DNA from: Planctomycetota bacterium
GTDB taxonomy: Bacteria > Planctomycetota > GCA-002687715 > CAIWVZ01
Length of the DNA stretch: 64,000 bases
Reading direction: 5' to 3'
Assembly: GCA_044222185.1 (NCBI GenBank)
Contig: JBGANV010000003.1
Coordinates: 384,001 to 448,000, forward strand
In this document: positions 1,030 to 57,234 of the stretch, in pieces
How the letters are laid out: every line of letters begins with the position of its first letter
How positions within the stretch are numbered: position 1 is the stretch's first letter
Made by a program: the position numbers and the translations under genes
The notes under the pieces: model-generated
What the model was told of the DNA's origin: nothing
The model's database searches: none
What the model saw: only the letters and a program-made list of their open reading frames with translations

Positions 1030-2352
1030 ATGACGACCGATCGAGCCATACTGAATCACGCTTCCCACGCCTTTGCGGCGTCGCATCACCGTTTCGCGCG
1101 GATATTCATCATCGCGGCCGCGATATCGGCCGTGGGACGATGCCAGACGTGTCCGACGGCATTCTCGTACTTCGAAGGGTTCAACGTGTCGGGCACAGGA
1201 GCGTTTCCGCTCGTCGCGGGGCCGCAGTACTTCGGGCTCTTCTGCAACCCCCTCGGATGCCCTTCGCCGCCGCCCGGACTGCCGTGTCCACAGTTCACCG
1301 TGAGCGGCGGCGTGCTGCAGCAGCGGAGTTTTGGTCTTCAGGGCGAGCACCTCTATGTAACGCTGACGGCTCTTTCGAACGGCGTGCTCGGCAGCGGCTC
1401 CCTGATCCCCACTCCGTCCCAGATCCCCACGGTGACACCCAACCCGGCAACCGGCGTCGGTACGCGTTGGTTCTTCGAGGCCCGCCTGCGCGTGATCCAG
1501 ATCTCCGGCGTCGGCGTCGTGTTCGAGGCGCGCGATGGCGATGGCCAGATCGACTACATCGCGACGATCAGCGCCGACACGTCCGGATGCGGTCTCGGAG
1601 GGCTCACGGGCCGCGTCGCCATCGGAGCCGGCTCGGCCCCTGCCGCGTCGGCGTGCCTTCAGCACATCGACCAGTTCCACGTCTACACGATGGAAGGAGA
1701 CTCCAGCACGGGACTGACGCATCTTTGGATCGACGGAACACTCTCGCTTTCCGCCGTGCTGCCCATCAGCTCCCCGCCCGCACCGCCCACCACCGCCCGT
1801 GGCTTCGCATTTGGTGACAACGGCTGCGACGCCACCACGGGCTCCGCCGACGCCGACTGGGACTACATCTGGATCGGCCAGGGATCGGCCGCGCCGCTCG
1901 GGCTCGGTCAACCGAACAGCGCGGAATCGCGGCTCCAGATCAACGATGCCGGCGGCGGCGTCGCGGCCGGCCCGGTCTGCCTGGACGTCTTCGGATCGAC
2001 GCCACTGACGATGCGCTGGGCCGGTCCGCCGTCCGCACACGTGATTCTCGCGACCAGCGGTGGCCCGATGGCAGGACAGCCGACCGGCAGTTGCCGCGGC
2101 CTCGTCGACCTGAATCTCCTAGGCGCGTCGATCGTGGTGAACTCGGCAGCTGGAGGCTACCCCAACGTCCTCTTCCAACTCGATGGAACGGGATTCGGCC
2201 AACAGTCGTTCTCGCTTCCGTTCCCGCCGAACACTCCGATCTTCCTCCAAGGTGCCGTGCTGCAGCCACCGCCGCCACCATCTGGATCGAACCTGGGGCC
2301 ATGCGCTGGCAACTACGTCCTGACGTCCGCGTTCTACATCACGAAACACTGA
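1030..2352 (+). CDS. Exported hypothetical protein with laminin-G/lectin-like core and shared C-terminal domain
   Basis: Hydrophobic signal ending ...AISAVGRCQ; beta-rich body (FHVYTMEGD...LWIDG...DWDYIWI); C-terminal LDGTG...LPFPP...IFLQGAVL...LTSAFYI. Start uncertain (931 or 1030). Confidence 0.7.
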   Translation: MTTDRAILNHASHAFAASHHRFARIFIIAAAISAVGRCQTCPTAFSYFEGFNVSGTGAFPLVAGPQYFGLFCNPLGCPSPPPGLPCPQFTVSGGVLQQRSFGLQGEHLYVTLTALSNGVLGSGSLIPTPSQIPTVTPNPATGVGTRWFFEARLRVIQISGVGVVFEARDGDGQIDYIATISADTSGCGLGGLTGRVAIGAGSAPAASACLQHIDQFHVYTMEGDSSTGLTHLWIDGTLSLSAVLPISSPPAPPTTARGFAFGDNGCDATTGSADADWDYIWIGQGSAAPLGLGQPNSAESRLQINDAGGGVAAGPVCLDVFGSTPLTMRWAGPPSAHVILATSGGPMAGQPTGSCRGLVDLNLLGASIVVNSAAGGYPNVLFQLDGTGFGQQSFSLPFPPNTPIFLQGAVLQPPPPPSGSNLGPCAGNYVLTSAFYITKH

Positions 2353-2771
2353 CCGCCTACGCGGCGGTCATCTCGCGGGCGCGCGCCGGCAGAGACTCGC
2401 CCCGTCCCCACACTCGCGCCTGCGAATCCGATTTGAGTGATCGCCGGCGGTCTCGACCTGCCAGCGCTCCTCGTCGCGAAACCAACACGACGGGCGTGCG
2501 CGAACTCCTACCGCGCGGAGCGTCGAGGCGCGGCCGCCGTGCTCAGCCGGCTGCCCGGAGCGTCCGTCGTGGACGTCGTCACACGATGCCGTCGACTCCT
2601 TCATGTGCGACGGGCAGCACCGATGGCGCGTCGGGCAATTCGACGACTCCGGGGGCCACTTGCCGACTATCGCGGCGGCGGCTCGAAGCTGGCCGCGGCG
2701 TGGTCGCCCGCGCCTTTGGGACGGCGCACGGAGCCCTGCCGTCCGGCCGCGTGAAGCGCCGCGCCCCCCCG

Positions 2772-3584
2772 CTACGCCATCACCCCGCAGTCGATGTTCA
2801 TCGCCTGCCCGGTGATGCCGGCGGCGAGAGGCGACACGAGGTAGCGCACGTAACCGGCGACTTCGTCCGGCTCGAGCGCGCGGCCGAGCGGGACGTTCTC
2901 CATCATCCGACGCTGGGCCTCGCGGACGTCGCATCCCATCTGCGTCGCGAGGCGAGAGAAACTGGCCTCGGACATCTCCGTCGTCACCCAGCCCGGGCAG
3001 ACGGCGTTCACGGTGATCCGCTCTCGGGCAAGATCGCGGGAGAGCGCACGGGTGAACCCGACCAGGCCGGCCTTGGAGGCGCAGTAGCCGTGGTACTCGG
3101 GGATCCCGAATCGAGCGAGAACCGACCCGATCATCACGATGCGGCCGCTGCCGTCGCGAGGGATGCTGGGGAGCAGCCGCCGCGTGAGCCGCATGGGCGC
3201 CGTGAGATTCACGGCCATCTGCCGATCGAAGGTGGCGAGGTCCGGGTCCGTCAGCGGCGACGGTCCGCCGATGGCCGCGTTGTGGACGAGAACCGTCAGG
3301 GGCTTGTCGCCCTGGGCGGCCCAATCAGCGAGCGCATCGGTCGCCGCACGGTCCGAGAGGTCGGCGGAATAGAGCGCAGCGAGGCCGCCAGCACTCTCGA
3401 TCTCGTGCGCCGTGCCCTGAAGCAGCTCGAGACGGCGCCCGGTGATCAGGACCTGGAATCCGTCACGCGCGAGCCCGACGGCGATTGCGCGGCCGATCCC
3501 CGTACCAGCTCCCGTCACGAGTGCGGTCGGACGGGGCGCTTTGGACTTCTCATCGGCCTTCGAGGCGGACTTCGGCTTCGTCAC
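2772..3584 (-). CDS. Short-chain dehydrogenase/reductase (SDR family)
   Basis: TGAGTGIG Rossmann motif, HNAAI, catalytic YCASK, NAVCPG. Confidence 0.93.
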   Translation of the reverse strand: MTKPKSASKADEKSKAPRPTALVTGAGTGIGRAIAVGLARDGFQVLITGRRLELLQGTAHEIESAGGLAALYSADLSDRAATDALADWAAQGDKPLTVLVHNAAIGGPSPLTDPDLATFDRQMAVNLTAPMRLTRRLLPSIPRDGSGRIVMIGSVLARFGIPEYHGYCASKAGLVGFTRALSRDLARERITVNAVCPGWVTTEMSEASFSRLATQMGCDVREAQRRMMENVPLGRALEPDEVAGYVRYLVSPLAAGITGQAMNIDCGVMA

Positions 3585-24922: not shown

Positions 24923-27478
24923 TCAGAACCCCAGGATCGTGGTCGTCTCCCGCGGCGTGAGCCGCTGCGTCGAGAGGATCGCGGCCTGCCAGTGGACGGT
25001 CGCACCCGCGAGGGCGGGGACCGGCGGCACCAAGGCCGTGATCGTCGTGTTGCCGTTGGCGTCCAGGTTGCCCGTGACCGTCGTGATGGCCGTCGCGAGG
25101 TCGATGGCGAGCCGGCCCCACGGTGAAATCACCTGGGACGGCGAAAGCAGGCCCGTCGTCGGAACGAGCAGCCATGGGGCCGTCGGCGGGCCGACGATCT
25201 CGAGCGTCGTGATCCGGCCCACACGCGGGAGGTCGCCATGTCCCAGATGCCGAGTCATGTTCGTGATGAAGTATCCCCGGTCGCAGAAGGGATCGAGGTC
25301 ACCGTCTCCGTCGTAGTCCACGGGGATCAACGCCGACACGGTCGTGGTGCCGTTCACCACACCCTCGGATGGCGCGAACGTTCCGGCTCCGAGCGAGCGT
25401 TTCCATTCCCGCGCGCCGAGCGCATCGGCGAGGCCGTCGCCATCGATGTCCGCCAGCGCCCAGCCATCGTTGGTCTGGGCTGTCAGCGTCGTGAGGACTC
25501 CCGCCACGGTGAACGCGAGGTTGCCGTTGTTCACGAGCACGGAGTCGCCGGCGATGAGGTCCATGTCGCCATCGCCATCGACGTCGCCCGCGGTGATCGT
25601 GTATCCGGTCGTCGGAGCCGCGATCGAAACCTGCGGACCCAGCGTGAACCCGCCCACCCCACCGACCATGGTGTTTCGGCAGACGCGAACGGTCGGGGGG
25701 TTGTCGGTGAATGCGGCGAGGTCCTTCCGACCATCGTTGTCCAGGTCCACGGCCACGATCGCCACGGCGCTCGTGTTCGTTGGATTCGTCACGCTCGAAG
25801 CGACCGTGAACGTTCCGCCGCCCTGGTTCAGCAGGATCTCGAACTGCGACGCGGCGCCAGCGTGGGCCACGGCGATGTCGAGCCGCCCGTCGTTGTCGAA
25901 ATCCGCCGCGGCCTGCGCGACCACGTTCGTGACGGGCGCGTTCGTCGTCATTCGGGAGAAGTCGCCGTTGGAGTCCGAGGCGAGGATCGCGGGCACGGGC
26001 GTCGAGGACGAGAAGACGCTGACGTCGATGCGTCCGTCTCCGTCGAAATCACCCGGAACCATCACGGCCAGACTTGGCGGCGGATTCGCCGGCACGACGG
26101 GGTTGGGATTCGCCAGCTGGAAGGTCCCCGCGCCGTCGTTTCGTGCGAGCGCCAGCGTGAAGATGCCGACCCCCGCCGCGGGAGGATGGACGCGCGCGAT
26201 GACGTCCACGTCGCCATCCCCTTCCGCGTCGGCGAACGCGAACACCTTGGTGGTGAGCGGTTGAAACAACAGCGGCAATCCGCCCGAGGTCCCCGCGTCG
26301 AGGTCGTTGAACGTTCCCACGCCCGAGTTGACTTCGATGTGCACGGTCTCGGACTTGACCGCCCGCGTGGCGATGTCCCGCAGGCCGTCGCCATCCAGGT
26401 CCGCGACGATCGCTGGAACGCGGAACGGGAACGTGAGCACCATCGCCGCGATCGTCACCGCGAAGGCGCCGCCGCTCGCCGCGACGGGGCCTGGGAATGA
26501 CGATCCGATGACGACTTCATCCGCTCCGTCGCCGTCGACGTCGAGGGCGCCGACAGGGACCACGTTGGCGGCCAGGGACCCATTGAACAACGTCGTCAGC
26601 GTCCCGGCGCTCCAGGTGATCACCGTCAGAGGTGAGCCGGAGTTGACGGCCGTTCCGATCGCGATGTCCGCGCGGCCGTCGCCGTTGAAGTCGCCGATCC
26701 CGGTCGACCAACCCAAGTGCGACAGATCCATCTGCCCGCTGGGAGCGAAGACCCCGCCGCCCGTGTTCCGCACCACTTGCGCCCTCGAAGCAAATCCAGG
26801 GGCCGGCAGGACCGAGTAGATCAGATCCACCAGTCCATCGCCGTCGAAATCGGCAGCGGCCCGGACCGAGCCGCCCTGTACGGCCGTGGGGAGCGCATTG
26901 AGGACGGGGACGAAAGCGTTGCCGCCGAGGTTCCGCAGGACTGCCTGGCTGAACGGGGACGGGCCGAACGTGAACACCAGATCGGTCTGCCCGTCCGCAT
27001 CCACGTCAGCCGGCACGATCCACAGGATCGGAGCCGGTGACAGGGATCCGAAGGTCGCGACGGACACGAACGTCCCGCCGATCAGCTTGTGGATTTCAAA
27101 CCCGCTGCCGGACCCGACGATCATCTCCGCCGCCGGGTCGTTGTCGACGTTGGCGAAGGCTCGGCCGGTCGGGTTGCTGACGGCCAGCGGCACGGGGCCG
27201 CGCACGTAGTGTCCGTTTCCGTCATTGAGGAAGAAGCGGGTCACCGGCGGCGCGGCGTTCACCTTCAAGTCCGTCGCGAGGAAGTCCACGTCGCCGTCGC
27301 CGTCGATGTCGCAGAACGTTTCGCCCTGAATCGAGATCCCGTGCGGGATGGGCGTCTCCGGCTCGCGGAGCACCGTGGATTGGGCCGAGGTCACGCCGCA
27401 CAGCACCAGCGCGGCGACGAATGCGACGTGCCAGGACACACCGGAAGACGCAGTGGGCTCGTTGCGGTACGAGATCAT
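24923..27478 (-). CDS. Exported FG-GAP/VCBS repeat protein with shared C-terminal domain
   Basis: Signal ...GVTSAQ; more than ten DxDGDGxxD Ca-binding repeats; C-terminal LDANG...VPPVPALAGATVHWQAAIL. Confidence 0.9.
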   Translation of the reverse strand: MISYRNEPTASSGVSWHVAFVAALVLCGVTSAQSTVLREPETPIPHGISIQGETFCDIDGDGDVDFLATDLKVNAAPPVTRFFLNDGNGHYVRGPVPLAVSNPTGRAFANVDNDPAAEMIVGSGSGFEIHKLIGGTFVSVATFGSLSPAPILWIVPADVDADGQTDLVFTFGPSPFSQAVLRNLGGNAFVPVLNALPTAVQGGSVRAAADFDGDGLVDLIYSVLPAPGFASRAQVVRNTGGGVFAPSGQMDLSHLGWSTGIGDFNGDGRADIAIGTAVNSGSPLTVITWSAGTLTTLFNGSLAANVVPVGALDVDGDGADEVVIGSSFPGPVAASGGAFAVTIAAMVLTFPFRVPAIVADLDGDGLRDIATRAVKSETVHIEVNSGVGTFNDLDAGTSGGLPLLFQPLTTKVFAFADAEGDGDVDVIARVHPPAAGVGIFTLALARNDGAGTFQLANPNPVVPANPPPSLAVMVPGDFDGDGRIDVSVFSSSTPVPAILASDSNGDFSRMTTNAPVTNVVAQAAADFDNDGRLDIAVAHAGAASQFEILLNQGGGTFTVASSVTNPTNTSAVAIVAVDLDNDGRKDLAAFTDNPPTVRVCRNTMVGGVGGFTLGPQVSIAAPTTGYTITAGDVDGDGDMDLIAGDSVLVNNGNLAFTVAGVLTTLTAQTNDGWALADIDGDGLADALGAREWKRSLGAGTFAPSEGVVNGTTTVSALIPVDYDGDGDLDPFCDRGYFITNMTRHLGHGDLPRVGRITTLEIVGPPTAPWLLVPTTGLLSPSQVISPWGRLAIDLATAITTVTGNLDANGNTTITALVPPVPALAGATVHWQAAILSTQRLTPRETTTILGF

Positions 27479-28686: not shown

Positions 28687-29898
28687 TCACGGTTGGAGCA
28701 CGAACGCCGAGGTCCCGCCGAGCGCGTAGGTGCCGCTCGTCGCATCGTAGGTGGCGACCTGGAAGTAGAACGGCACGTAGAACCAGGAGGGCGGGAGCGG
28801 CAACGGCGGGAAGCCGATGATCGACGATCCCGCCGCACTCATGTTCGCCGATCCCATGGCGGCGATCGCCGAGGTATCGATCAGCACCTCCCCGAGGAAC
28901 GGCGATGGGGCCGTCTGGAACGCGGCGGCTGGCGACACCGCGATCGCGAATGTCGTAGCCGGTGTCGAGACGAGGAGCGACACGGTCACGAAATGGACGG
29001 CTGACGTGATCCACGGCCCCGGGTTCACGATCTCCGGCAGCAACGCGGCGGAGATCACGGTGCCGGTGTATCCGGGTGCGGTGTACCCGCCGTGGCCGGT
29101 GCCACCCTGCAAGCTCGTGCCATGGACGGTTGCCACGCCATCCGTCACGAGCCCTGCGGACGGGGGAACGATGAAGAAGGGGCTGACCCCGAATCCGTGT
29201 CCACCCTGCACGATCCCGCTCCCGAACACTCGGACCGGGGAATTCACGAGGACGACGCCGGGAAACGACTGCGTGACGACCGCGGGATTTCCGGGGCCGA
29301 TGAACGTGTGGGCACCCGTGATGCTCGATGAGTCGATCGTCACACGGCTGTTCGTCGCCGCGACCCCTGCGGTCCCCGCGGGCACGATGGCGCCCGAGCT
29401 CCCACTGACCGTGCAGTGAGAGATCGTCGTGTGAGGCGAGTTCTCGATCACGATCGGCCCGACTGAACAGCGATGGATTCCCGCCTCCGCATCGACGATC
29501 CGCACGCCGCTCGTCGGCGTCGTGGCGCCGAACGGCATGGCTGCGTCGGTGATCGTCAGTCGGCCAGGCCCGAGGCACTCGAATCCCGCAGTCACGGTGA
29601 ATCCGTTGATGAACACCGGTCCTGACGACGGGGTGTTCGTCACGGTGATGTGGCCCGACACGACCGTCGCTCCGACACCCGCGCCGACGATCGTGAGTCC
29701 CTTGCCCGACAGCGTGAACCCCGCATAGCTGCCCGATTGCACCAGGAGGACGTCTCCATTCGTCGCGGCATCGATGCCCGCCTGGATGCCGACGAACTGG
29801 ATTCCCGGACCCGCGGTGGGTCCGACGACGTACACGGCCTGCGCCAGACTGACGTGCGTGAGGACGACGATCCAAGCGAACCAGCAAATGCGCGACAT
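28687..29898 (-). CDS. Exported beta-helix-like protein with shared C-terminal domain
   Basis: MSRICW...SLAQ signal; IQAGIDAATNGDVLLVQSGSY (pectin-lyase-like beta-helix cap); C-terminal LGEVLID...PFYFQVA. Confidence 0.75.
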   Translation of the reverse strand: MSRICWFAWIVVLTHVSLAQAVYVVGPTAGPGIQFVGIQAGIDAATNGDVLLVQSGSYAGFTLSGKGLTIVGAGVGATVVSGHITVTNTPSSGPVFINGFTVTAGFECLGPGRLTITDAAMPFGATTPTSGVRIVDAEAGIHRCSVGPIVIENSPHTTISHCTVSGSSGAIVPAGTAGVAATNSRVTIDSSSITGAHTFIGPGNPAVVTQSFPGVVLVNSPVRVFGSGIVQGGHGFGVSPFFIVPPSAGLVTDGVATVHGTSLQGGTGHGGYTAPGYTGTVISAALLPEIVNPGPWITSAVHFVTVSLLVSTPATTFAIAVSPAAAFQTAPSPFLGEVLIDTSAIAAMGSANMSAAGSSIIGFPPLPLPPSWFYVPFYFQVATYDATSGTYALGGTSAFVLQP

Positions 29899-38600: not shown

Positions 38601-38720
38601 GAACGCATCCTGCGCCACGTCGTCCGCCGTCGCCGCGTCCATGACGACCCGGCGCGCGAGTCGCCTCACGAAGGCGTCCTCGGCGATCAGGTCCGTCATG
38701 CGTCGTTCGATCGGTGCCAT
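35697..38720 (-). CDS. ECF sigma factor fused to a TM helix and exported carboxypeptidase-regulatory-like (prealbumin-like) repeats
   Basis: ADDVAQDAF...IRGWL (sigma2), RRYFDGESPRAIAAALGVPLETVRTRL (sigma4), TM KVLAAASVLFVIVGGWALF, then repeated GRVVD..G.P...TD..GRF domains. Confidence 0.9.
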   Translation of the reverse strand: MAPIERRMTDLIAEDAFVRRLARRVVMDAATADDVAQDAFVAALAKEPPQGAPIRGWLTVILRRLASRMQRGARRRARREAVVARPEAVDSAAEIVARENERRRLVEAVLALPEIHRTVVLRRYFDGESPRAIAAALGVPLETVRTRLKTAHEKLRSALGGDSRGEPMAFGALIPLVCPTAASKVSALGHVLVARAWHGAGAALWEAASMTVRTKVLAAASVLFVIVGGWALFRSAQSDSHLPAGMGASETAPAPGLLTGSHATSRPSPAATRPSTRMSAVPFQERAVDGVVDILVRHRARGMRDTMLTVYGMDHGHPMLSPVRRRTDDSGRVRLEGIHEGRIWAVTDSGWGSEAKVVAGTTTSVTIDVGDGFTLVGRVVDDADHAIADADVLLGRMLERFTEPCSLKSDSAGRFTVENVCERILVAARAAGMTPSSAVEVMGAVGDRREVTLRLSGKAGGVEGRVVDSRGVPVVGAVVIVSSEGPTGIAARRKGGPEQGTPPFATSTDALGHFRMGTAEPGLRRVQARGPKTGAVETTIQVDAGRTSQVELVLPDGVSLEGRVLTAAGVPLARASVTVGMPDSIWGASTRSGDDGAYRLDGLNAGSIDVTVHHDGEGDAAQSFRDVTDGTNLHWDAQLSQGVALKIRVVDETQRPLAGASLSGVLKLWAPGVAQERMSAYGKTDADGRAVFPNKCDHKIYRMTVNVRKGNQIADRTVELEPDDQEHVIVIRSSDFASCLITGRLIREDGSVVPSATLVAGNVREDGESEELSDVSGRFRLGPYRAGRLYVRVKASGFGTVLLGEREVATGDTWDLGDVMLAPPGSLVVTFATPPTAKPSYMVEILGLGSFHTEFATTSDGVARATLQPGRYAVRMHGSNPAGIDVDRVVTIESGRVTQLEIPIVEGVRRDVRVKSPVLPTYHDPLNVRVIDATGAQVCERAIRGLAGGDDIPMVSLTLKPGRYRVTSAYAGAKGETAFEILEDETTSTSPPTPPIVDLVLEDSRGK

Positions 38721-38905
38721 GTCTCCATGAAGCCTATGCCCGCGGATGCTCGATCGGGTCGGGACAGGTGAGAATCCCGTGAGCGGTTCGCCTCCCGCCA
38801 CGACGGGACGGTCGTCGCGTCGGTCACCCCCAGCGAGCGCCGTGGTATCATCCGCGCCGCGATTTCCGGCACGATTCACGCCGCGCCCAGGAGAATCCCG
38901 TGACC

Positions 38906-39523
38906 ATGGCCCAGGCAGCGATGGCCTCACTCGTCGTCCTCTCGACTCTCGCCGGTTGCTCGTCGACGGCCGAACCCGCATCCGAGCGCGGTGGGTCGGA
39001 GTTCGACCAGCTCTTCCACGACGACCAGGCCGCCCGGGCGACGGATTGGGGCACGCTCTCCGCCGAGCGCCTGCAGGCGATCCATCAGGCCGACACCGCC
39101 CGCCTCGCGCGGGTGAAGGAACTCATCCACGCCGGTGCGCTGGCGACGCCCGAGGATCACTATCACGCGGCCATGGTGCTCCAGCACGGGGAGCAGCCCG
39201 ACGATTACCTGCTCGCCCACGTCCTCGCGTCGGCCGCGGCGATCCAAGGAGTGGCTGGCGCGAGCTGGCTTTCGGCGGCGAGCCTCGACCGCTTCCTGCA
39301 GAACATCGACCGACCGCAGTGGTTCGGCACCCAGTACCGGCGCAACGGCAGCACGACGCCGTGGACGCAGGAGCCCCTCTCTCCCGTCCTGTCCGATTCG
39401 ATTCGCGCGGCCTTCGGCGTGCCGACGTTGGAGGCGGCGCGCAAACGGCTCGACGAGATGAACGCCAAGCTGGCGCTGCGATCGAAGGCCGCGGAATCGA
39501 AGCCCGCGACATCCATTCCGTGA
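38906..39523 (+). CDS. Lipoprotein, DUF6624-like helical domain
   Basis: LSTLAGC lipobox; DDQAAR, AAMVLQHG, DRFL...PQWFGTQY. Confidence 0.7.
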   Translation: MAQAAMASLVVLSTLAGCSSTAEPASERGGSEFDQLFHDDQAARATDWGTLSAERLQAIHQADTARLARVKELIHAGALATPEDHYHAAMVLQHGEQPDDYLLAHVLASAAAIQGVAGASWLSAASLDRFLQNIDRPQWFGTQYRRNGSTTPWTQEPLSPVLSDSIRAAFGVPTLEAARKRLDEMNAKLALRSKAAESKPATSIP

Positions 39524-47371: not shown

Positions 47372-48697
47372 TCAGGGCACGAACGTGAACGGAGCGGCGG
47401 TGCTGATTCCACGAATCCCGAGTGAGGCTGCTGGATCGAGCGTCACCGCGACGGCGTAGGCCGTGATTCCCGCGAGCGCCGGGATGTTCGGGATCGTCAC
47501 GGTCGGCTTGGGCGACGCGATGCCAGCCCCGTCGAGAGCCGTGACCATGTCGGAGAACACGCCGTTGCCCGGAGTCAGCGACAGGTTCGTGATCGCATCG
47601 ATCGTGATCGGAACCGCGCGCCCGTCGCCGAGCGGGGTCGGGCCGGTGCCGAGCGTGAACGCACAGACCGCGGCGAGCCCAGGCGTCGCCGGGCAGAAGA
47701 CGTCGAGCGTGACCGTCGAGCCGATCGATGCCTGACGATCAGGCAGCAGGCCGACGAGATGGGCTGAAACGGGAACGATCTCGAGCCGATCGAACAGATA
47801 ATCGGCTTTCAGCGTGTTCGAGTCGATGTTCCCGAAGAAGAACGTCACGGTATCTGTGAGCGATGCAATGTTGAATGTGACCGGCGGGGTTTCGACCCAC
47901 TGATCGACCGTCTGGTTGGTGGAAAGCAGCGTCGTCTGGGTCGCGGTCGCGCCGACGGTGGCGCGAAGGTCGAGGTTCTCTGCGAAGGCGGCGCTTGTGA
48001 ACTTCTTCACGCGCACCTTGGCTGCGTAGGTGCCCGGCGGGAGGCTCAACGCTGGCGAGTCATACTCAAGCCACCAGACCTGGTTGAGGGTGTCGACGAC
48101 GCCCGAAAGCGCCTCAGGGCTCGGGACGTTGTCAGTGAAATAGGGAGCCGACCACGCATGCGTCCACTCCGTTGCGAGGCTCGACACCGCCGGCACGGGC
48201 CGGATCGTGAAGCTGTCGATGAGGTATCCCTCTTTGAATTGGCCGAGGGCCGTGTTCTCGAAGGTGAATTGGATCGGTGCCGTCGTCGGGGTCACGTCGA
48301 AGTACAGCGGCGGGGTTTCGACCCACTGGTTCATCGGCTGTCCGCTCGTCGGGAGCGTCACGGACAGTGGGACGCCGTCGACGATCGCGTTCAGATCCAG
48401 GGGCCACGTGCTGGAGGGCGCGAGGTACTTCTTGATGCGCACCGTGGCGGCGTAACGCCCAGGAAGCAACGGCGCTGGGGTGTGCCAGTATTGCAGCCAC
48501 GTGAGTCCGGTGCCGACGGGCACGTCATCGACGTACCCGAAATGGGATTCCGACGACGTCGTGGTGACGGCGTAGGGAGAACCCCAGACCTTGTTCCAGT
48601 TCATGGCGAGCGAGTTGGTGAATCCGGATTGCGCCGACGCCGGCGCCAAACAGAGGATGGTCGCGAGCAGAAACGAGCAGGACTTGGTTCGAAGCAT
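47372..48697 (-). CDS. Exported protein with two tandem CBM-like beta-sandwich repeats and shared C-terminal domain
   Basis: AAAAAGGAG RBS; signal ...APASAQ; two ~140 aa repeats (PG.YAA.VR.KK...QWVETPP..F); C-terminal LDGAG...IPNIPALAGITAYA. Confidence 0.82.
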   Translation of the reverse strand: MLRTKSCSFLLATILCLAPASAQSGFTNSLAMNWNKVWGSPYAVTTTSSESHFGYVDDVPVGTGLTWLQYWHTPAPLLPGRYAATVRIKKYLAPSSTWPLDLNAIVDGVPLSVTLPTSGQPMNQWVETPPLYFDVTPTTAPIQFTFENTALGQFKEGYLIDSFTIRPVPAVSSLATEWTHAWSAPYFTDNVPSPEALSGVVDTLNQVWWLEYDSPALSLPPGTYAAKVRVKKFTSAAFAENLDLRATVGATATQTTLLSTNQTVDQWVETPPVTFNIASLTDTVTFFFGNIDSNTLKADYLFDRLEIVPVSAHLVGLLPDRQASIGSTVTLDVFCPATPGLAAVCAFTLGTGPTPLGDGRAVPITIDAITNLSLTPGNGVFSDMVTALDGAGIASPKPTVTIPNIPALAGITAYAVAVTLDPAASLGIRGISTAAPFTFVP

Positions 48698-48817: not shown

Positions 48818-49471
48818 TCAGCCTTCCGAGTCACCGAGTTCCTCAAAAACCGACCCGACAAGCGCGCTCCGCAGCCGCGAGAGAGCGCGGTGGTACCGCA
48901 CGTTCACGGCGTTCTCCGTGATGCCGAGCACGACGCCTACCTCGGACGCCGGATGGGCCTCGATCGCGCGAAGGATGATGATTTCGCGATCCTTGTCGTC
49001 GAGGGCCTGAAGCTGACGCCAGACCTCGCTTTTCCGCTCCTCACGGACGGCGTGACTGACCGCGCCCGTCACGTCTGCCGACAGCTGACTCAGGCCGGCG
49101 GCGGAGGTTTCGTGGCCCGGCGTCGTCTCGGTTCGTCGTTCGCGGATCCAGCGATCCTGAAGCCGGTGGATCCGATGAAGGAGCGCCGTCGCAAGGTAGG
49201 CCAGGATCGCACGCGAGTACGACCCGCCTGAGGGCGTGAGGCTCCCGAGGTTGGGGAGACACGCGAGCCAGACGTCGTTGACGAGATCTTCTGGATCGAC
49301 GGCGCGCCGAAGCGATCGGCCGAGCCGATACTCGGCCTGCACGAGCAACAGCGGTGAGACCCTCCGAACGACCCAGTCGGCGCTCGTCGTGTCCCCCGCG
49401 AGTGCACGGCGCACCTGGACGGAGGTGTCGTCCTGCGGTTGGTCGGTGGCATCCGCCGGTGATCGCGACAT
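48818..49471 (-). CDS. ECF-family RNA polymerase sigma factor
   Basis: DPEDLVNDVW, ILAYL, LDDKDREIIILR...EVGVVLGITENAVNVRYHRAL; divergent from a kinase gene. Confidence 0.92.
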   Translation of the reverse strand: MSRSPADATDQPQDDTSVQVRRALAGDTTSADWVVRRVSPLLLVQAEYRLGRSLRRAVDPEDLVNDVWLACLPNLGSLTPSGGSYSRAILAYLATALLHRIHRLQDRWIRERRTETTPGHETSAAGLSQLSADVTGAVSHAVREERKSEVWRQLQALDDKDREIIILRAIEAHPASEVGVVLGITENAVNVRYHRALSRLRSALVGSVFEELGDSEG

Positions 49472-49506
49472 GCCCGTATGATATCCGCGCCCGGCGGACG
49501 ACGGCC

Positions 49507-52332
49507 ATGAGCACATCCGACACACCGCGAGCGATGGCGATCCGCCTCGCGTTCCGCGCGCGTTACCTCGAGGACATCGAGTCGGACACCGTCCGCCCGG
49601 TCGAGCACTACCAGTCGGCGTTCCCGGGATTCGAAGACGTCGTCGCCGAGGAACACTCGGTCCTCGCGCGCGCCTCGGCCGCATGGGACACGCCCCTCCC
49701 CGTTCACGCGGACATGAATGAGACCGCTGCGTACGCCGCCTCCCAGACAGTCGGTGAAGTCATCGCAGGCCACCGCATCGAGAGGCTTCTCGCGAAGGGC
49801 GGACAGGGCGCCGTTTACCTCGCAACGGATCCGGCCGGGCGCCGTGTCGCGTTCAAGATCCTCCGCCCGCTGTGGAGTCAGTCCGAGACCGCACGGAAGC
49901 GCTTCGTGCTCGAAGCCAGGATCCTGGCCGCGCAGGAGCACCCTGGGCTCTGCACCGTCTACGACGCGGGTCAGCATGGGGAGCTGCAGTGGATCTCCAT
50001 GAAGTTCGTCGATGGGGAATCTCTGGCAGCGCACCTCTCGACCCGCCGCGCATCAGGCACAAAGCAGGTGTCGGCCGAGGAGGTCCGCCGCGCCACTTCC
50101 TGGATAGAACGGACGGCGCGCGCCGTGCACCGGGCACACGAGATCGGTGCGGTCCACCGCGATCTGAAGCCGTCGAACGTCATGATCACTGGGCGCGACG
50201 ACCCGGTGGTGCTGGATTTCGGTCTGGCCCACGCCGAGACCGCGGACGAATCCTTGACGCGGACCGGGGACCTGCTCGGAACGCCGGCGTACATGGCGCC
50301 GGAGCAGGTCGCCGGCGGAAGCGGCGCGATCGATCGACGGACCGACGTCTATGCGCTCGGTGCATTGCTTTACGAACTGGTCACACTCGAAAAGCCGATC
50401 GTCGAGCCGGACCGATCGAGGCTCTACGCCGCGATTCTCACGGTGCGCCCCCGACCCGCACGGTCCCTCAACCCAGCGATCCCCCGTGACCTCGACGCCG
50501 TACTCGACGCATGCCTTCAGAAGGCGCCATCGGACCGATATCAGACCGCCGAGAGTCTTGCAGCAGACCTCGCGGCCGTGCGCGAAGGAAGAGGTGTGGC
50601 CGTCCGAAGACCATCGCTCGCGTCCATCGTGGCGAGGCGCGTCCGCAGCGAACCGGCCCTTTCATCGCTGATCGCGGCGGTCGTCGTGGTGCTGGGGATC
50701 GGCATCGTCATCATCGCGATGCTCAACCGGAGGATCGAAGCCTCGAACACGATCCTCGGCGCCGAAGCCGCCCGCGCGTCCGCTGCCCAGCGCGACGCCG
50801 AAACCAACCTGGAGGACTTCAGCCTTCTTCAGGATCTACGCAACCTGGACGGTCTCGAGGCTCGCGCCGACGAACTGTGGCCCGCCATCGAGACGTCGAC
50901 CGCACGGATGGACGCGTGGGTCAGTGACGCGACGGCGATCGCCTCGCGGCTCGATCGCGACCGGGCCGCGCGTGATCGCGTGCGTTCGCGCGGTCGTGAG
51001 ACTCCGTTCGGAGGGACGCGATCGCCATCGAGGCCCTCGGCCGCACAGGCACGCTTCGCCGAGATTCGGGGTGTCAGAGACCGGATCGAGTCGCAGCTCG
51101 AACGCACGCCTGGGACAGACACGAGAGCCACGACATTCCTCCGCGGCCGCCGTGACGAGGCCAAGAACGCGGAAGCGGTATTCCTCGCGCCGTTCGAGGG
51201 CCACGGAACGTTCGAGTTCGAGGATCCCGCAGATGCGTTCGCCTACGAACGTCTGGACGCGCTCGTCCGGCGGGTGCGACATCTCGCCGAAGACCTGCTG
51301 CCCGCCATCGAAACACGTCGCGCGCGCGCGGCTTCGCTATCACATTCGTCGATCGACGAGCACGCGGACGCATGGAGGCGGACCGTCGCGGAGGTGAGGC
51401 AAGCCCCCGCGTACCACGGCCTCGCGCTGGAACCGATCCGAGGACTGGTGCCCATCGGGCGAGACCCGGAATCGGGGCTGTTCGAGTTCGCCCATCTGCT
51501 GACGGGCATCATCCCCGCGCGCGACGCGGCCGGAAAGCTCCGGTTCGCGGCCGAGTGCGGGGTCGTCCTAGTCCTCGTGCCGGGCGGGCCCTCCCGGATC
51601 GGTGCAAGCAAACCGACGTCGTCCGAGTCCGGCCCGAATCTCGACCCTGCCGCAAAGGGCGAGGAGGGTCCCGTCGCCGAGGTCGACCTCGCTCCCTACT
51701 TCATCTCGAAATACGAGCTGACCCAGCGTCAATGGCAGCGGATGACGGGAACCAACCCGAGCGCGTCTCCGCCCACGGGTCGCGCACCGGACGAGGAAGC
51801 GCAACGCGCGATCTGTCCCGTGGAGAATGTCAGCGCCGACGACTGCCTGCTGTGGTTGCGCCGCTTCGGTCTCGACCTGCCGACCGAAGCTCAATGGGAA
51901 CACTCGGCACGCGCTGGGAAGTCAACAGTCTGGTGGACCGGTGACGATGTGGAATCGATCGCAGGCTGCGCGAACGTGGCGGACGTCACACTCCAGCGCC
52001 AGAATCCAGGGTTCGGCTTCACGGTCGAGGCATGGCTCGACGACGGGTTCGCCCAGACGGCGCCCGTCAACGCGCTCCGTCCGAATCCCTTCGGCCTTCA
52101 CCACGTGATCGGCAACGTTCGCGAGTGGACGAAGGACCGTTGGGGTGACGCGCGGTACGCGTGCCAGCCGGGAGACGGCATCAGGCTTCCCCCGCCGTCA
52201 GAGTTGCGCGGCGTGCGCGGAGGTTCCTTCGCCGGGCCGGCGAGCAACGGCAGGTCCAGCGCACGGTCGAGCGTGGAGTCATCGAGTCGGTACATGAACA
52301 CCGGCGTACGACCCGCGAGGGCCCTCCCGTGA
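49507..52332 (+). CDS. Membrane Ser/Thr protein kinase with C-terminal FGE/SUMF1-like domain
   Basis: KGGQGAVY, VAFK, HRDLKPSN, DFGLA, GTPAYMAPE; TM; FISKYELTQRQW, LPTEAQWE, PNPFGLHHVIGNVREW, RGGSF. Confidence 0.93.
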   Translation: MSTSDTPRAMAIRLAFRARYLEDIESDTVRPVEHYQSAFPGFEDVVAEEHSVLARASAAWDTPLPVHADMNETAAYAASQTVGEVIAGHRIERLLAKGGQGAVYLATDPAGRRVAFKILRPLWSQSETARKRFVLEARILAAQEHPGLCTVYDAGQHGELQWISMKFVDGESLAAHLSTRRASGTKQVSAEEVRRATSWIERTARAVHRAHEIGAVHRDLKPSNVMITGRDDPVVLDFGLAHAETADESLTRTGDLLGTPAYMAPEQVAGGSGAIDRRTDVYALGALLYELVTLEKPIVEPDRSRLYAAILTVRPRPARSLNPAIPRDLDAVLDACLQKAPSDRYQTAESLAADLAAVREGRGVAVRRPSLASIVARRVRSEPALSSLIAAVVVVLGIGIVIIAMLNRRIEASNTILGAEAARASAAQRDAETNLEDFSLLQDLRNLDGLEARADELWPAIETSTARMDAWVSDATAIASRLDRDRAARDRVRSRGRETPFGGTRSPSRPSAAQARFAEIRGVRDRIESQLERTPGTDTRATTFLRGRRDEAKNAEAVFLAPFEGHGTFEFEDPADAFAYERLDALVRRVRHLAEDLLPAIETRRARAASLSHSSIDEHADAWRRTVAEVRQAPAYHGLALEPIRGLVPIGRDPESGLFEFAHLLTGIIPARDAAGKLRFAAECGVVLVLVPGGPSRIGASKPTSSESGPNLDPAAKGEEGPVAEVDLAPYFISKYELTQRQWQRMTGTNPSASPPTGRAPDEEAQRAICPVENVSADDCLLWLRRFGLDLPTEAQWEHSARAGKSTVWWTGDDVESIAGCANVADVTLQRQNPGFGFTVEAWLDDGFAQTAPVNALRPNPFGLHHVIGNVREWTKDRWGDARYACQPGDGIRLPPPSELRGVRGGSFAGPASNGRSSARSSVESSSRYMNTGVRPARALP

Positions 52333-54842
52333 TTCGCGTCAGCCGATACGAGATACGAGGTGAGATCGGGCGTGGTGGACAAGGAGCCGTCTACCTCGCC
52401 AACGACCCGACCTTGGGACGGAACGTCGCGCTCAAGCTCATTCACCCGCGTCCCGGGACGACGGCCGAGCAGGAGGCTTCGATGCTCCGCTCAGCGGCCG
52501 TTACGACGGCCCGCATCGAAGACCCTGGAGTCTGTCCCGTCCTCGACGTCGGCTGCGACGCCGGTTTCGCGTTCGCGACGATGCCGGTCATCGACGGCGA
52601 ATCGCTCGCGACCTGGATCCGCGACCGCCGCGCGACGAACACGCCTCCCGGGCGCGACGAGGTGAAGGACGTCGCGGCCTGGATCGAAGGCGCCGCCCGG
52701 ACGCTGCACCATTGCCACGAACGCGGATGCGTTCACGGCGACGTCAAGCCCAGCAACCTCATGGTCGCACGCGACGGCCGGATCGTCGTCCTGGACTTCG
52801 GTCCGTCCGCCGACCATGGACAGCAGTCGATGCCCGGAACTCCCGCCTACCTTCCTCCCGAGCGCGCCGCGGACACGACATCGATTCCGGACGCTCAGGG
52901 AGACGTGTTCGCGCTCGGGGTCTCGCTCTTCGAGACGCTGACGCTTTCGCGACCTGCCGAGGGAGCGACCGTGACACGGCTGCTCCACGCGATCGTGCAT
53001 GAGGAGGCGCCGCGTGCCGGCCATCTGAACCGGGCAGTACCCCGCGACCTCGAGGCGATCGTCTCGAAGGCCATCGAGAAGGACCGAATCCGACGCTACC
53101 GGACCTGCGCCGAACTCGCCGACGAACTGGCGCGCTTTCGTGAAGGTCACCCCGTCGTGGCGCGGCGGCCCACGCTCCTGTTGCGCGTCACACGGCTGTG
53201 CCAGCGCCGACCGTGGGAGGCGATCGCGACGATCCTGCTCATTTCCGTTCTCGGATGGGCGCTCGTTGCATCCGTTTCGCGAACGAGACAGCTCTCCGTG
53301 ATCGGCACCAAGACGGCGGACGCGACGAAGTCCGCCGGCCTCGCCACCGACGCCGCGATGGCTTCGCTCCGGGATTGGCGCGAACTCGCCGACCTGGACG
53401 AGGTCAGGGACCTCGAGCAGCGCGCACGAGACCTCTGGCCGCCGCACCCGGCCTCGGTGCCACGGATGCGAGCATGGCTCGACGACGCGCAGCGATTGCT
53501 CTCCCGCTTCGAACGACAAGCGGATGCACTCGAGTCGCTCCGCCGGGAAGCACTCCCATGGGATCGAGCGGCCGCCCAACAGGATCGCGTCACGCACCCA
53601 GGGTGGCGGCGGTTCGAAGAGCTTCGGTCGTCTCGCGACGCCATCGCCGCGCAGATCGGAGGAGGCACGTTCCGTTTCAGACGGCAGCTCGACTCCGATC
53701 TCATCGCGCTCGACGAGTCGCTCGCGCGGTTGGGCTCCGAGATCGAGGTCCGCCGGTCATGGAGCTTCGCCGACTCCGCCCGCGGCTGGCGCCACGAATC
53801 GCTGTCGGCGCTCGTCAACGAGATGCGCGCGCTTCGAGAAGCGCTCGTCCCGGAGGTGAACCGGCGCATCGCGACCGCCGAGTCGATCGGGAGCCGCACA
53901 CTCACGGGGGCGCAGACTTCTTGGGCTCGAGCGCTCGATTCGATTGCCGACCGGGGTGAGTGCCCTCTGTATCACGGGCTTCGGATCCGGCCCCAGGCAG
54001 GCCTCGTCCCGATCGCACGCAACCCGACGACGGGTCTATGGGAGTTTGCTCACCAGCTCTCGGGGACAACGCCGAGCGTCGGAGAGGCTGGAAGCCTGGT
54101 TCTCGACGAGGAGAGCGCGGTCGTTCTCGTGCTGATCCCTGGTGGCACGTTCACGATGGGTTCTGCGCGAGGTACGACCCCGGTGCCCTCGGAGGCAGAG
54201 CTGCCGTCTCACGAGGTCAGGCTGGATCCGTTCTTCATCAGCCGCAACGAGATGACTCGAGTTCAGTGGCGAAGATGCGGAGGCGCGCCCAGGTGGAATC
54301 CTGCCGGGCTTCCGGCCGACGATCAGGACGACGTGTTGCCGGCCGCGAACGTGGATTGGAACGAGACGTCGTCGGTGCTTCGATCGGTGGGGCTCACGAC
54401 TCCAACCGAAGCGCAGTGGGAATGCGCTGCACGTGCCGGAACGAAGACGGGTTGGTGGACCGGAGACGACAAGGCCGCCCTGCGGCTCGTAGCAAATCTG
54501 CGCGACCGGATGCGGACGACGGTGCCCCCGTTCGAAGAGTGGAACGACGGCTTTGCGGACCTCGCACCCGTCGGCTCCTTCAAGCCGAGTCCCTTCGGCC
54601 TCTACGACGTCCACGGCAATGCCTGGGAATGGTGCACCGATGCCTACGACGACTACTGGATGCCGGTTCACGCTGGTGACGGCGCTCGAATCACGCTCAG
54701 CTCGGCGGAGCGGTGCTATCGCGGAGGCTCCGCCACGAACATTGCGAACGATGCGCGATCAGCGAAGCGATTCGGCGACCCGCCAGTGACGCGCTATCTC
54801 TTCCTCGGAGTGCGCCCGGCGCGCCGTGTTGATGCGGAGTAA
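52329..54842 (+). CDS. Paralogous Ser/Thr kinase-FGE/SUMF1 fusion with degenerate kinase motifs
   Basis: GTGA overlap; GRGGQGAVY, VALK, HGDVKPSN, DFGP, GTPAYLPPE; TM; PTEAQWECAARAG, PSPFGLYDVHGNAWEW. Confidence 0.9.
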   Translation: MIRVSRYEIRGEIGRGGQGAVYLANDPTLGRNVALKLIHPRPGTTAEQEASMLRSAAVTTARIEDPGVCPVLDVGCDAGFAFATMPVIDGESLATWIRDRRATNTPPGRDEVKDVAAWIEGAARTLHHCHERGCVHGDVKPSNLMVARDGRIVVLDFGPSADHGQQSMPGTPAYLPPERAADTTSIPDAQGDVFALGVSLFETLTLSRPAEGATVTRLLHAIVHEEAPRAGHLNRAVPRDLEAIVSKAIEKDRIRRYRTCAELADELARFREGHPVVARRPTLLLRVTRLCQRRPWEAIATILLISVLGWALVASVSRTRQLSVIGTKTADATKSAGLATDAAMASLRDWRELADLDEVRDLEQRARDLWPPHPASVPRMRAWLDDAQRLLSRFERQADALESLRREALPWDRAAAQQDRVTHPGWRRFEELRSSRDAIAAQIGGGTFRFRRQLDSDLIALDESLARLGSEIEVRRSWSFADSARGWRHESLSALVNEMRALREALVPEVNRRIATAESIGSRTLTGAQTSWARALDSIADRGECPLYHGLRIRPQAGLVPIARNPTTGLWEFAHQLSGTTPSVGEAGSLVLDEESAVVLVLIPGGTFTMGSARGTTPVPSEAELPSHEVRLDPFFISRNEMTRVQWRRCGGAPRWNPAGLPADDQDDVLPAANVDWNETSSVLRSVGLTTPTEAQWECAARAGTKTGWWTGDDKAALRLVANLRDRMRTTVPPFEEWNDGFADLAPVGSFKPSPFGLYDVHGNAWEWCTDAYDDYWMPVHAGDGARITLSSAERCYRGGSATNIANDARSAKRFGDPPVTRYLFLGVRPARRVDAE

Positions 54843-54844
54843 TC

Positions 54845-54884: not shown

Positions 54885-55038
54885 CCACGGACTCCTCGTT
54901 CGCAGCGGCGCGACGGGTTCGTGGCGTTGACGCGGCGAACCCTGGGGTCGTGACCCGTCATGCGTGAATGAGCGCCTTCCGTGCGCGACGTCCCTGCCGG
55001 CATCGCCGTGCCCGGCGGTCGGCCGCCGGACTTCAGCG

Positions 55039-57234
55039 TCAGAACACGATGCAACGCGCCGTGGACGACGTTGGGCCGATCACGCCACCCGTGACATCCA
55101 CGCAGATCGCGTCGAACGTCAGACCGATCGGCTCGAAGTGCGGACCGAACACCTGACTCGTCCCCGTCGCCTGGAAGTGCACGGGGAGCGCGCCCAGGGG
55201 AAGCTGGAGCTGGAAGATCAGGTAGGAGAGGTCGCTGAAATAGAGGCCCGCGTAGGGGCCCGTTCCCAACCCGTTCGCGAGCCACTCGCCGCTGAAGAGG
55301 TTGTAGTACTCGTGCCCGGCCACGAGCTTCGAACTCGTCCCGAACAGTGCCGTCCCCGACCCACCCGGCTGACTGAAGCCGATCGTCGGCCGGAGGTCGT
55401 CGTACCGCGCGACCGACCGGGTGCCGCCCGCGGCTATCCGCGCGAAGGCGAAACCGGCCGGAAGGCTCGGAATGGTCGATTGCCCCACGGAATTCCGCCC
55501 CCACGCGACGAGCGATCCGTCGCTCAGCCGCGCGAGGGAGTGGTCGTCACCAGCCGCGATCTCGACGTACGCGCGCCCCGGCGGCGCGGCTGGCGCCGTC
55601 GACTGACCGTAGGTGTTGTCACCCCACCCCACGACCGTTCCGTCGCTTCGCAATCCGAGGGCGTGCCGACGCCCCGCGGCAATCGCCAAGTACGTGAGCC
55701 CCGGCGGGAGCAATGGCACGTCGGTCTGGGACACATCGTTCAGTCCCCAGGCTTGGGCGGAACCGTCGCTCATCCGCGCCAGCGAGAACCGCTCTCCAGC
55801 AGCGACGGCGACGAACGTGACACCGGCCGGGAGTACGGGGACCGCGATCTGGCCGAACCCATTGTTACCCCACGCCACCACGCTTCCGTCGCTGCGCAGC
55901 GCCAGGGTATGGAAGTCGCCGCCCGCAACGCCCGAATATGTCAAGCCCTGCGGTAGCGGCGGAACGTTGCACTGTCCGGCGATGTTCCATCCCCACGCGG
56001 TGAGCCCGCCGTCCGAACGTCGCCCGAGCGAATGGTAGAAGCCGGCTGAGATTTCGACGTACCCGACGCCCGGCGGCAGACTCGGCACCGATGCCTGACC
56101 AAAAATCGCGTACCCGAAACCGACGACAGTCCCGTCACTCCGTCGGACCAACGTGTGCGTCGGGCCGACGGCGACGTCCACGTCCGCCGCGGTCGATGGC
56201 GGCGATGGGAAGTTGCACTGCGAGTTTGCGTTCGCGCCCCATGTGACCACGCGACCGTCGCTCCGGCGGGCCGCGCTGTGATTCAGGCCGGCCGCGATCT
56301 GGACGTACGTGAGGCCTGACGGCAGGACAGGCACGTTGCACTGGCTGTCGGCGTTGTTCCCCCAGGCGACGATCGACCCGTCGCTCCGGCGCGCCAGCAT
56401 GTGGCTACCCCCGGCGGAGACGTTCACGTAGCCGAGCCCTGGTGGAAGTGGCGGCACCGTCATCTCGCCGTAGGAGTTGCCGCCCCAGACGACGATGACG
56501 CCGTCGCTCCGACGGGCTGCGATCGCGGTCAACCCGACAGTCAGTTCGACGTACGTCAGCCCCGGGGCCAGCGGCGGCACGAGCCCTCGGCCGTTCGAGA
56601 TATCGCCCCACACGACGATCGAACCGTCGTTGCGCCGTGCGGCGCTCGTGTTGCCGCGAGCCGAGACCTCGACGTATGTGAGTCCCGGCGGGAGCTGGGG
56701 GACGACGCATTGGGCACTCAAGTTCAAGCCCCAGGCGACGACCGCCCCGTTGCCGCGAAGCGCGAGCGTGTGGTTCGCGCCGGCCGCGATCTGGACGTAG
56801 GGCGCTCCAGGCACCAGCAGCGGCACGGCGAGTTCGCCGTTCAGATTGCCGCCAAAGGCGCGCAAGGATCCGTCCGTCACGAGCGCCACCGTATGACTCG
56901 TCCCGATCGAGACCTGCACGTACGACTGCCCCTGCGGCAGCGGGAGGATGTTGCACTGCCCCGCTGAGTTCTCGCCAAAGACGACGAGCGATCCGTCGGC
57001 GCGGCGAACCGCCGTGTCGACGGACCCGGCCGCGACGTCGACGAACGTCTCGTCACCGAGGCGATCATCGACGACCTGGCCGCCCCAGCCGCGAACGAAA
57101 CTCTGTGCGCTCAGTCCGCAGGCAGAGCCGAGCCACACCGCGAGGATTGCCAGCGTCCGAATCGGTCGCCAACCCGCCAACGATCCGACTGTAAGGTCGT
57201 CGGACCCGCGGTTACGCGTCACGCGCACTCTCAT
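55039..57234 (-). CDS. Exported RCC1/BLIP-II-like repeat protein
   Basis: Signal ...ACGLSAQ; about 14 repeats of Y..VAAG..H.LA.RSDG.VVAWG.N..GQ..VP.LP.GL. Start uncertain (57234-57267). Confidence 0.9.
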   Translation of the reverse strand: MRVRVTRNRGSDDLTVGSLAGWRPIRTLAILAVWLGSACGLSAQSFVRGWGGQVVDDRLGDETFVDVAAGSVDTAVRRADGSLVVFGENSAGQCNILPLPQGQSYVQVSIGTSHTVALVTDGSLRAFGGNLNGELAVPLLVPGAPYVQIAAGANHTLALRGNGAVVAWGLNLSAQCVVPQLPPGLTYVEVSARGNTSAARRNDGSIVVWGDISNGRGLVPPLAPGLTYVELTVGLTAIAARRSDGVIVVWGGNSYGEMTVPPLPPGLGYVNVSAGGSHMLARRSDGSIVAWGNNADSQCNVPVLPSGLTYVQIAAGLNHSAARRSDGRVVTWGANANSQCNFPSPPSTAADVDVAVGPTHTLVRRSDGTVVGFGYAIFGQASVPSLPPGVGYVEISAGFYHSLGRRSDGGLTAWGWNIAGQCNVPPLPQGLTYSGVAGGDFHTLALRSDGSVVAWGNNGFGQIAVPVLPAGVTFVAVAAGERFSLARMSDGSAQAWGLNDVSQTDVPLLPPGLTYLAIAAGRRHALGLRSDGTVVGWGDNTYGQSTAPAAPPGRAYVEIAAGDDHSLARLSDGSLVAWGRNSVGQSTIPSLPAGFAFARIAAGGTRSVARYDDLRPTIGFSQPGGSGTALFGTSSKLVAGHEYYNLFSGEWLANGLGTGPYAGLYFSDLSYLIFQLQLPLGALPVHFQATGTSQVFGPHFEPIGLTFDAICVDVTGGVIGPTSSTARCIVF

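Follow-up and report, generated by a model that had tools for sequence, protein, structure and literature searches.

An immunoglobulin-like domain carried by many exported proteins of a planctomycete lineage: a candidate surface-retention module

Introduction

A 64,000-nucleotide stretch of DNA from a Planctomycetota bacterium, referred to throughout as the window, encodes five exported proteins with differing passenger regions and tails of similar appearance, which raises the question of whether these tails are one domain and what such a domain does for its carriers. The original prediction took them for a candidate sorting or surface-attachment signal at C-termini that may belong to an undescribed system. 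The tails are treated here as members of one domain superfamily of ~115 residues, called the tag, which recurs throughout the genome of origin (G000; 7.08 Mb in 16 contigs, 93.8% complete, about 67.5% GC). With a probability of about one half, the tag is a module that stays uncleaved and retains its carriers at the surface, serving in place of a lipid anchor on proteins whose export probably goes by type II secretion.

A shared domain on five different passengers

The five open reading frames (ORFs; Table 1), designated below by their lower window coordinate, and the motifs originally quoted for their tails are all present in the window sequence. The passenger labels first given to them hold in part: FG-GAP (24923) and RCC1 (55039) were recovered, 47372 proved to match a PP2 family, the beta-helix likeness of 28687 stayed below the cut-off, and 1030 had no family. 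Apparent cleavage of all five signal peptides before Gln had also been noted, and each start, judged by eye, shows a hydrophobic stretch followed by a small residue and Gln, that of 1030 being the least canonical, with Cys at -1.

Pairwise comparison links none of the five tails to another, whereas iterated profiles link all five; four of them match other C-termini of the genome strongly even in pairwise comparison. Iterated runs were made against 4,314 gene tails and reversed decoys, with 0-1 decoys per run. The model begun from 24923 recovers 1030 (E 4.9e-9), 47372 (E 3.9e-15) and 28687 (E 4.9e-7), and that begun from 47372 recovers 55039 (E 2.7e-8). Scores against a single profile made without the five window tails (the leave-out profile; Table 1) compare with best-of-200-shuffles scores of 10.5 bits for 24923, 6.2 for 47372, 6.0 for 1030, 10.8 for 55039 and 3.7 for 28687. 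The profile census of called genes found no sixth copy within the window. The core of the original prediction, a folded domain shared by Sec passengers of many folds and absent from the catalogues, is borne out in the form of one superfamily.

Table 1. Tag-bearing proteins of the window with their tag domains, and the terminal module of family f56 discussed in the text. Positions of the window features are window coordinates; for the f56 module, loci and genomes are given; aa, amino acids; pLDDT, predicted local distance difference test.
Feature	Position	Strand	Evidence
Exported protein, 440 aa, no Pfam family	1030..2352	+	ORF; signal peptide, then Gln
Tag domain, subfamily A	1969..2349	+	Leave-out profile 30.9 bits, E 8.6e-8
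Exported FG-GAP repeat protein, 851 aa	24923..27478	-	ORF, family match
Tag domain, subfamily A	24926..25252	-	Leave-out profile 54.2 bits
Exported protein, 403 aa, NosD/beta-helix likeness below cut-off	28687..29898	-	ORF, weak matches
Tag domain, divergent subfamily A member, weakest of five	28690..29019	-	Iterated profile E 4.9e-7; leave-out profile 14.7 bits, E 0.009
Exported protein, 441 aa, PP2-like lectin domain (PF14299, E 4.8e-7)	47372..48697	-	ORF, family match
Tag domain, subfamily A, modelled copy (pLDDT 95.8)	47375..47758	-	Leave-out profile 77.3 bits
Exported RCC1-repeat protein, about 713 aa, TTG start, start codon uncertain	55039..57180 (5' end approximate)	-	ORF, family match
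Tag domain, subfamily B, modelled copy (pLDDT 89.6)	55042..55386	-	Leave-out profile 30.2 bits
f56 terminal module	L244-L251; G185, G214, G105, G123, G200		

Copy number, position and passengers

Among 4,887 genes called with a custom codon model, 458 carry the tag at E < 1e-4, with 0 reversed decoys; the subfamily profiles used include their own members, and 62 matches are new. Because a few divergent tails stay unscored, 458 is a floor. The domain occurs once per protein in 455 of these carriers. It is C-terminal in 398, ending flush with the C-terminus in 315 of them, follows the signal peptide directly in 31 and is internal in 29. Its passengers are diverse, 380 of them sorting into 149 groups, the largest of which bears tails of subfamilies A (42) and B (38) alike.

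Two proteins consist of three tandem copies only (C1:1324421-1325803, L090; C6:335673-336992), an arrangement also found outside the genome (P0035), and a few consist of a signal peptide and one copy. These domain-only proteins, together with the 60 N-terminal or internal copies, leave a purely C-terminal sorting signal unsupported. Internal occurrence was among the observations named in advance as refuting the original prediction, and it holds for part of the carriers. What follows a non-terminal copy is in most cases a propeller, of the kelch or another type, or a nidogen-like domain, as judged by eye, with kelch confirmed. No common upstream cleavage motif was found across subfamilies.

Subfamilies and predicted fold

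Subfamily B, to which the 55039 tail belongs, makes up 85 of 405 clustered domains. It differs strongly from A in an insertion, and profile-profile comparison of the two is weak (E 0.001, probability 21.6%). Because profiles link them, this weak match exists and their predicted secondary structures are similar, A and B are treated as one superfamily, less securely than membership within either. Median pairwise identity is about 18%. The most conserved columns (Gly, Pro, one Gln and Ser/Thr-Asn) look structural, and column counts reveal no conserved aromatic platform.

AlphaFold models of both subfamilies are confident (pLDDT in Table 1) and predict an immunoglobulin (Ig)-like beta-sandwich in which the third strand is followed by an insertion made up of a hairpin and a short helix, the modelled fold being complete as a monomer with no missing strand apparent. 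For the A model, antibody, complement macroglobulin and intimin domains share the top rank of structural matches (Z 8.0-9.3, root-mean-square deviation 2.2-2.6 Å over 85-99 residues, identity 10-19%), and for the B model the best matches are fibronectin III domains (Z up to 7.8). Such matches of predicted structures are a common fold and no pointer to function. Foldseek searches of PDB and BFVD returned generic Ig matches; C-terminal domains (CTDs) of the type IX secretion system (T9SS) were absent among the matches listed, which does not amount to exclusion.

The domain is hydrophobic (mean hydropathy +0.53) and nearly without Lys and Glu. In 217 of 330 proteins no 110-residue stretch of the passenger matches it in hydrophobicity, and the insertion reaches 0.56-0.79, against -0.3 to -0.4 for the other loops.

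Charge, signal peptides and the exclusion of lipoproteins

A signal-peptide-like start is present in 443 of the 458 carriers, a pattern that is weak alone because 2,050 of 3,431 other proteins were flagged too. Gln follows the signal peptidase I (SPI) site in 391 of 430 scorable carriers and in 593 of 1,748 others, by a heuristic and with a comparison set that holds membrane proteins. Since Gln at +1 is common on the other exported proteins of G000, it is not specific to the tag system; its genome-wide occurrence after signal peptides, outer-membrane barrels included, amounts to a Q-rule-like bias outside the Bacteroidetes. No plant-type glutaminyl cyclase was matched in G000, which has 16 peptidase M28 matches as candidates for that role.

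Composition sets the carriers apart more sharply. Their median content of Lys, Glu and Arg (K+E+R) is 4.5%, against 17%. A content below 10% is found in 98.5% of carriers; among the other proteins the share is 11.9% where a signal peptide is present and 1.8% where it is absent. The 121 non-carriers below 10% include, by eye, flagellin, hook proteins, pilins and large lipoproteins, and low charge therefore appears to mark the outside of the cell in G000. Within the low-charge exported class, the tag is present on 391 of 498 SPI-type proteins versus 2 of 16 lipoproteins; among all strict lipoproteins, defined by a hand-made lipobox pattern, it is present on 2 of 173. Lipid-anchored proteins almost never bear the tag.

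Several low-charge exported proteins that lack the tag form groups of their own. A group of 15 ends in a nidogen-like domain (C16:62609, C13:121138 and C2:163955 among them), and its relatives bear the tag immediately ahead of that domain. A second, seven-member family contains Cys and is 414-438 aa long (C2:1428, C14:52460 and C5:58345 among them). In the window itself, an untagged DUF7948/PKD protein (21615-24692, plus strand) has a tail that resembles that of one other G000 protein (C9:30015). The labels GspC/D/E/F, nidogen-like, SBBP and flagellin, here and below, were given by eye and are presumptive.

Database novelty and distribution

No Pfam family was found on 64 members at E 0.1 and no NCBIfam family on the five window tails; the best E in a PDB sequence search was 0.2, and all of the 30 nearest ESM Atlas clusters are without a name. 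No description was found in the literature covered, which included the available portions of 10.1101/817700, PMC11032199, 10.64898/2026.10.26.761892 and PMC12419801, with supplementary family tables and subscription journals outside its scope.

The domain occurs in all 22 genomes of the class, with 24-150 scored matches each. Across the phylum, 66 of 301 genomes match, 60 of them with at least four matches, and 235 have none; the distribution is near all-or-none by family, with 16 domain-rich families. Subfamily B is found in 11 of 46 chosen genomes, mainly in the order to which G000 belongs. The profile retrieves 22,659 representatives at 50% identity, and the 138 best matches from outside G000 comprise 95 C-terminal and 3 N-terminal copies and 40 too short to class. 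A neighbourhood scan with an N-terminal-domain kelch protein recovered the domain in 5 of 11 Planctomycetota- or Brocadiaceae-labelled loci and in 0 of 68 others, a weak control consisting mostly of unrelated kelch proteins.

An apparent swap of the domain in family f56

A clue to the working part of the tag may be offered by family f56, in which the domain is not expanded. Di-haem peroxidase proteins of this family are 36-50% identical to two tagged G000 proteins and keep a relic of the domain, followed by a different module of ~310 residues (Table 1). The insertion retains only 23 residues in one relic and 27 in another; of 310 intact copies, 0 and 7, respectively, have one that short. Two f56 propeller proteins resemble tagged G000 homologues up to a point near the junction, where the likeness stops. 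Of the f56 genomes, 5 of 7 have the ~310-residue module, against 0 of 21 others; it sits on passengers of three unrelated types and has no convincing Pfam match. The idea that it is itself an expanded tag was not borne out, there being 1-2 matches per genome in 6 of 8. At the level of sequence, the swap suggests that terminal modules are lineage-specific and that the insertion is the working part of the tag.

Candidate export machinery and partners

An undescribed export or docking system had been proposed for the tails; of its two halves, both putative, docking would fit better than an export signal. No dedicated translocon or sortase was found in G000. The search for T9SS machinery in this 93.8% complete genome covered SprA, PorP, PorV and PorU. 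SprA_N and PorP gave no match, nor did their positive controls, and for PorV_fam there was only a FadL barrel, scoring 25.5 bits where the cut-off is 90. Three peptidase C25 proteins were considered as PorU and rejected, one being itself a carrier and the other two having neighbourhoods without a PorV-like gene. TIGR04183 and TIGR02595 (PEP-CTERM) were each unmatched in G000, as were their positive controls, and exosortase EpsH (PF09721) was unmatched with a positive control that matched in 1 of 14.

A scan of 18 barrel-like or large envelope candidates, chosen by rough heuristics, yielded porins, a TonB receptor, LptD and AsmA-like proteins and no large unknown barrel; four of the 18 (226-476 aa) have no family. 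Among general exits, G000 encodes two Omp85 proteins, a PDZ-bearing GspC-like protein and eight secretins, several of which lie, by eye, in GspD/E/F/pseudopilin-like (type II secretion) or type IV pilus loci. One type II secretion-like operon contains two tandem secretins of 760 and 778 aa (G000:C1:1541589-1552520, L213).

Two candidate partners were profiled. The FadL/PorV-like barrel (G000:C1:1663341-1664714) was rejected as a general receptor, being present in 5 of the 38 genomes that bear the domain and in 5 of the 32 that lack it. It adjoins a kelch protein with an N-terminal domain copy (G000:C1:1663341-1668946, L089), with a 5'-nucleotidase lipoprotein beside the pair, and a FadL barrel is flanked by a domain match in G009 and G021 too (L096, L097). 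The second candidate is a surface-type lipoprotein of 799 aa with no Pfam match (G000:C8:71635-74034, L091), which has five copies in G000; in all 11 of the same-order loci examined, the next gene downstream of it is prepilin-peptidase-like (orthologues L187-L196, L201). Its C-terminal domain, unrelated to the tag, defines a family in 91 of the 301 phylum genomes. Domain and lipoprotein family occur together in 53 genomes, the domain alone in 13, the lipoprotein alone in 38 and neither in 197. The lipoprotein family is present in all 16 domain-rich families and in 12 families without expansion, for which reason it may only mark a wider clade; because kin are not independent, the overlap is a lead only and does not make it the partner. 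A complex prediction for this lipoprotein and the domain scored 0.00, which is uninformative either way, and the ESM Atlas held no usable match for the protein.

Surface retention and its alternatives

In the reading favoured here, carriers would first be exported by Sec and cut by signal peptidase I, mostly before Gln; the sequence pattern suggests this cleavage and pyroglutamate formation. The folded protein would then cross the outer membrane, as its composition suggests, most plausibly through type II secretion, which is favoured because it is a general protein exit found in G000. Finally, the hydrophobic hairpin-plus-helix insertion would attach the domain non-covalently to an envelope component particular to the lineage, perhaps an outer-leaflet lipid, a glycolipid or a surface protein, and so might keep enzymes, lectins and adhesins on the cell. 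Some signal-peptide proteins, in G000 and elsewhere, consist otherwise of one or three copies of the domain alone, which suits a binder better than an address label. The tag behaves as a portable envelope tag, as originally predicted, though not as one restricted to C-termini.

Dockerin-cohesin pairs and S-layer homology (SLH) domains stay uncleaved, tolerate various positions in a protein and keep a range of enzymes at the surface through a lineage-specific partner. The working proposed for the tag would be analogous; unlike dockerin and SLH modules, the tag has no Pfam match, has a single Ig-like fold in place of helical repeats and resides in a diderm host.

Several points weigh against retention. 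The preponderance of C-terminal copies (87%), 315 of 398 of them flush, is as expected of a terminal signal, and neither candidate profiled, the FadL barrel or the lipoprotein family, was identified as a binding partner. The exclusion of lipoproteins rests on the 16 low-charge members and on the hand-made lipobox pattern. Cost selection, which would act on any secreted protein, may account for the low charge and the hydrophobicity. Single intact C-terminal copies occur in the non-expanded genomes G263, G251 and G125, where they may reflect contamination. The f56 case represents one or two evolutionary events, in which transfer may have run in either direction; two of its four relics are too decayed for profile measurement, with the same gap in a MAFFT alignment, and relic loss fits a lost export signal equally well.

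That last point belongs to the most serious alternative, itself on the unlikely side, namely that the domain is an outer-membrane export signal read by a translocon, of type II secretion or another kind, as T9SS CTDs are in Bacteroidota. In the available text of the sources, T9SS CTDs are described as Ig-like, of low identity, 67-108 aa long and with a conserved Lys in the last strand (PMC11285876), and the Q-rule of Bacteroidetes as placing Gln at +1 of exported proteins (PMC11285876, PMC5837995). The tag resembles type A CTDs (TIGR04183/Por_Secre_tail) in being, by prediction, a small Ig-like sandwich of low identity (about 18%, in the manner of PMC11285876 as far as its available text goes), carried once per protein, mostly at the C-terminus, by diverse Sec passengers, and its cargo has Gln at +1. 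Its presence on 391 of 498 low-charge SPI-type proteins, its all-or-none distribution by family and the f56 swap, which fits a lineage-specific signal, would also be expected of an export signal. It differs from T9SS CTDs in its greater length, its hydrophobic insertion, the absence of a profile match, the 13% of copies (60 of 458) that are not terminal and the occurrence of Lys within the last six residues of only 11 of 398 C-terminal tags. Domain-only proteins would carry no cargo to export, and no tag was scored on 107 low-charge SPI-type proteins. The machinery also speaks against such a signal, in that no T9SS components were found in G000 (the SprA_N and PorP controls being unmatched as well), the PorV likeness is below cut-off on a FadL barrel that does not co-occur with the domain, and no large unknown barrel emerged, though four small candidates are without family.

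PEP-CTERM segments, in the accessible text of their description, occur in many copies per genome, at the C-termini of signal-peptide proteins and with a patchy distribution (PMC1569441). The tag shares these features with PEP-CTERM/exosortase systems and differs in being folded, with a transmembrane (TM)-like stretch in 2 of 398 C-terminal copies and a basic tail (at least three Lys or Arg) in 2 of 398. As originally stated, it belongs neither with PEP-CTERM nor with the catalogued T9SS CTDs, having no profile match and no pattern of TM helix plus basic tail.

It is improbable that the domain is a self-assembling coat unit, variants of which would co-polymerise into an S-layer-like mosaic or fibre displaying the passengers. 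One copy per protein, the domain-only and triple-domain proteins, the hydrophobic and nearly uncharged character of the domain and the sheer mass of the carriers (309,914 of 2,101,920 called residues) would suit such a coat; members only about 18% identical, strongly different A and B insertions and a modelled fold that is complete as a monomer would not.

A generic Ig-like accessory, that is, a spacer, folding aid or carbohydrate-binding module (CBM) expanded without any envelope role, is a shade less probable still. The fold does match generic Ig, macroglobulin and fibronectin III domains (best Z 9.3 and 7.8), any position in a protein is possible, and A2M_BRD matches one triple-domain protein weakly (20.8 bits against a cut-off of 22.7, E 5e-4, over 35 residues). 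The macroglobulin (MG) domains of C3/C5 and alpha-2-macroglobulin and the Ig domains of intimin are among the tied best structural matches; antibody domains tie with them, however (Z 8.6-9.3 for MG), MG domains are arrayed within one large protein, and the likeness is one of shared fold only. Spacers and CBMs usually differ in copy number, whereas 455 of 458 carriers have a single copy; in addition, no conserved aromatic platform appeared in column counts, the predicted roles of the passengers are unrelated, and lipoproteins avoid the tag.

Chance likeness of Gly/Pro/Leu-rich tails in a high-GC genome, to which the lack of pairwise matches among the five tails and the weak A-B comparison might point, is refuted for four window tails, that of 28687 (E 0.009) being the least secure, and can be set aside in view of 0 reversed decoys against 458 matches at E 1e-4, leave-out scores far over those of shuffles, confident predicted folds for A and B, and 235 of 301 phylum genomes without a match.

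Other features of the window

Two adjoining Ser/Thr kinase-FGE-sulfatase fusions are encoded at 49354-54842 on the plus strand. A further fusion, at 35697-38981 on the minus strand, joins an ECF sigma factor to carboxypeptidase-regulatory repeats.

Implications for the planctomycete cell surface

The domain is carried by 9% of G000 genes and by dozens to hundreds of genes in related genomes, with no database entry, and offers an immediate means of recognising the extracellular proteome in a widespread clade of mostly uncultured planctomycetes. It also makes the question of how these bacteria display proteins beyond the outer membrane testable, in terms of localisation, cleavage and partner. 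If anchoring is enzyme-free, the domain would be a candidate surface-display tool. More broadly, and tentatively, at least 16 families of Planctomycetota may build their surface with an undescribed display system, in which an Ig-like foot on nearly the whole extracellular proteome would be bound or read by a lineage-specific partner, without sortase or T9SS, and in which the modules of sister lineages would overwrite the foot upon gene transfer. If true, this would constitute a new general route for placing proteins on the surface of diderm bacteria.

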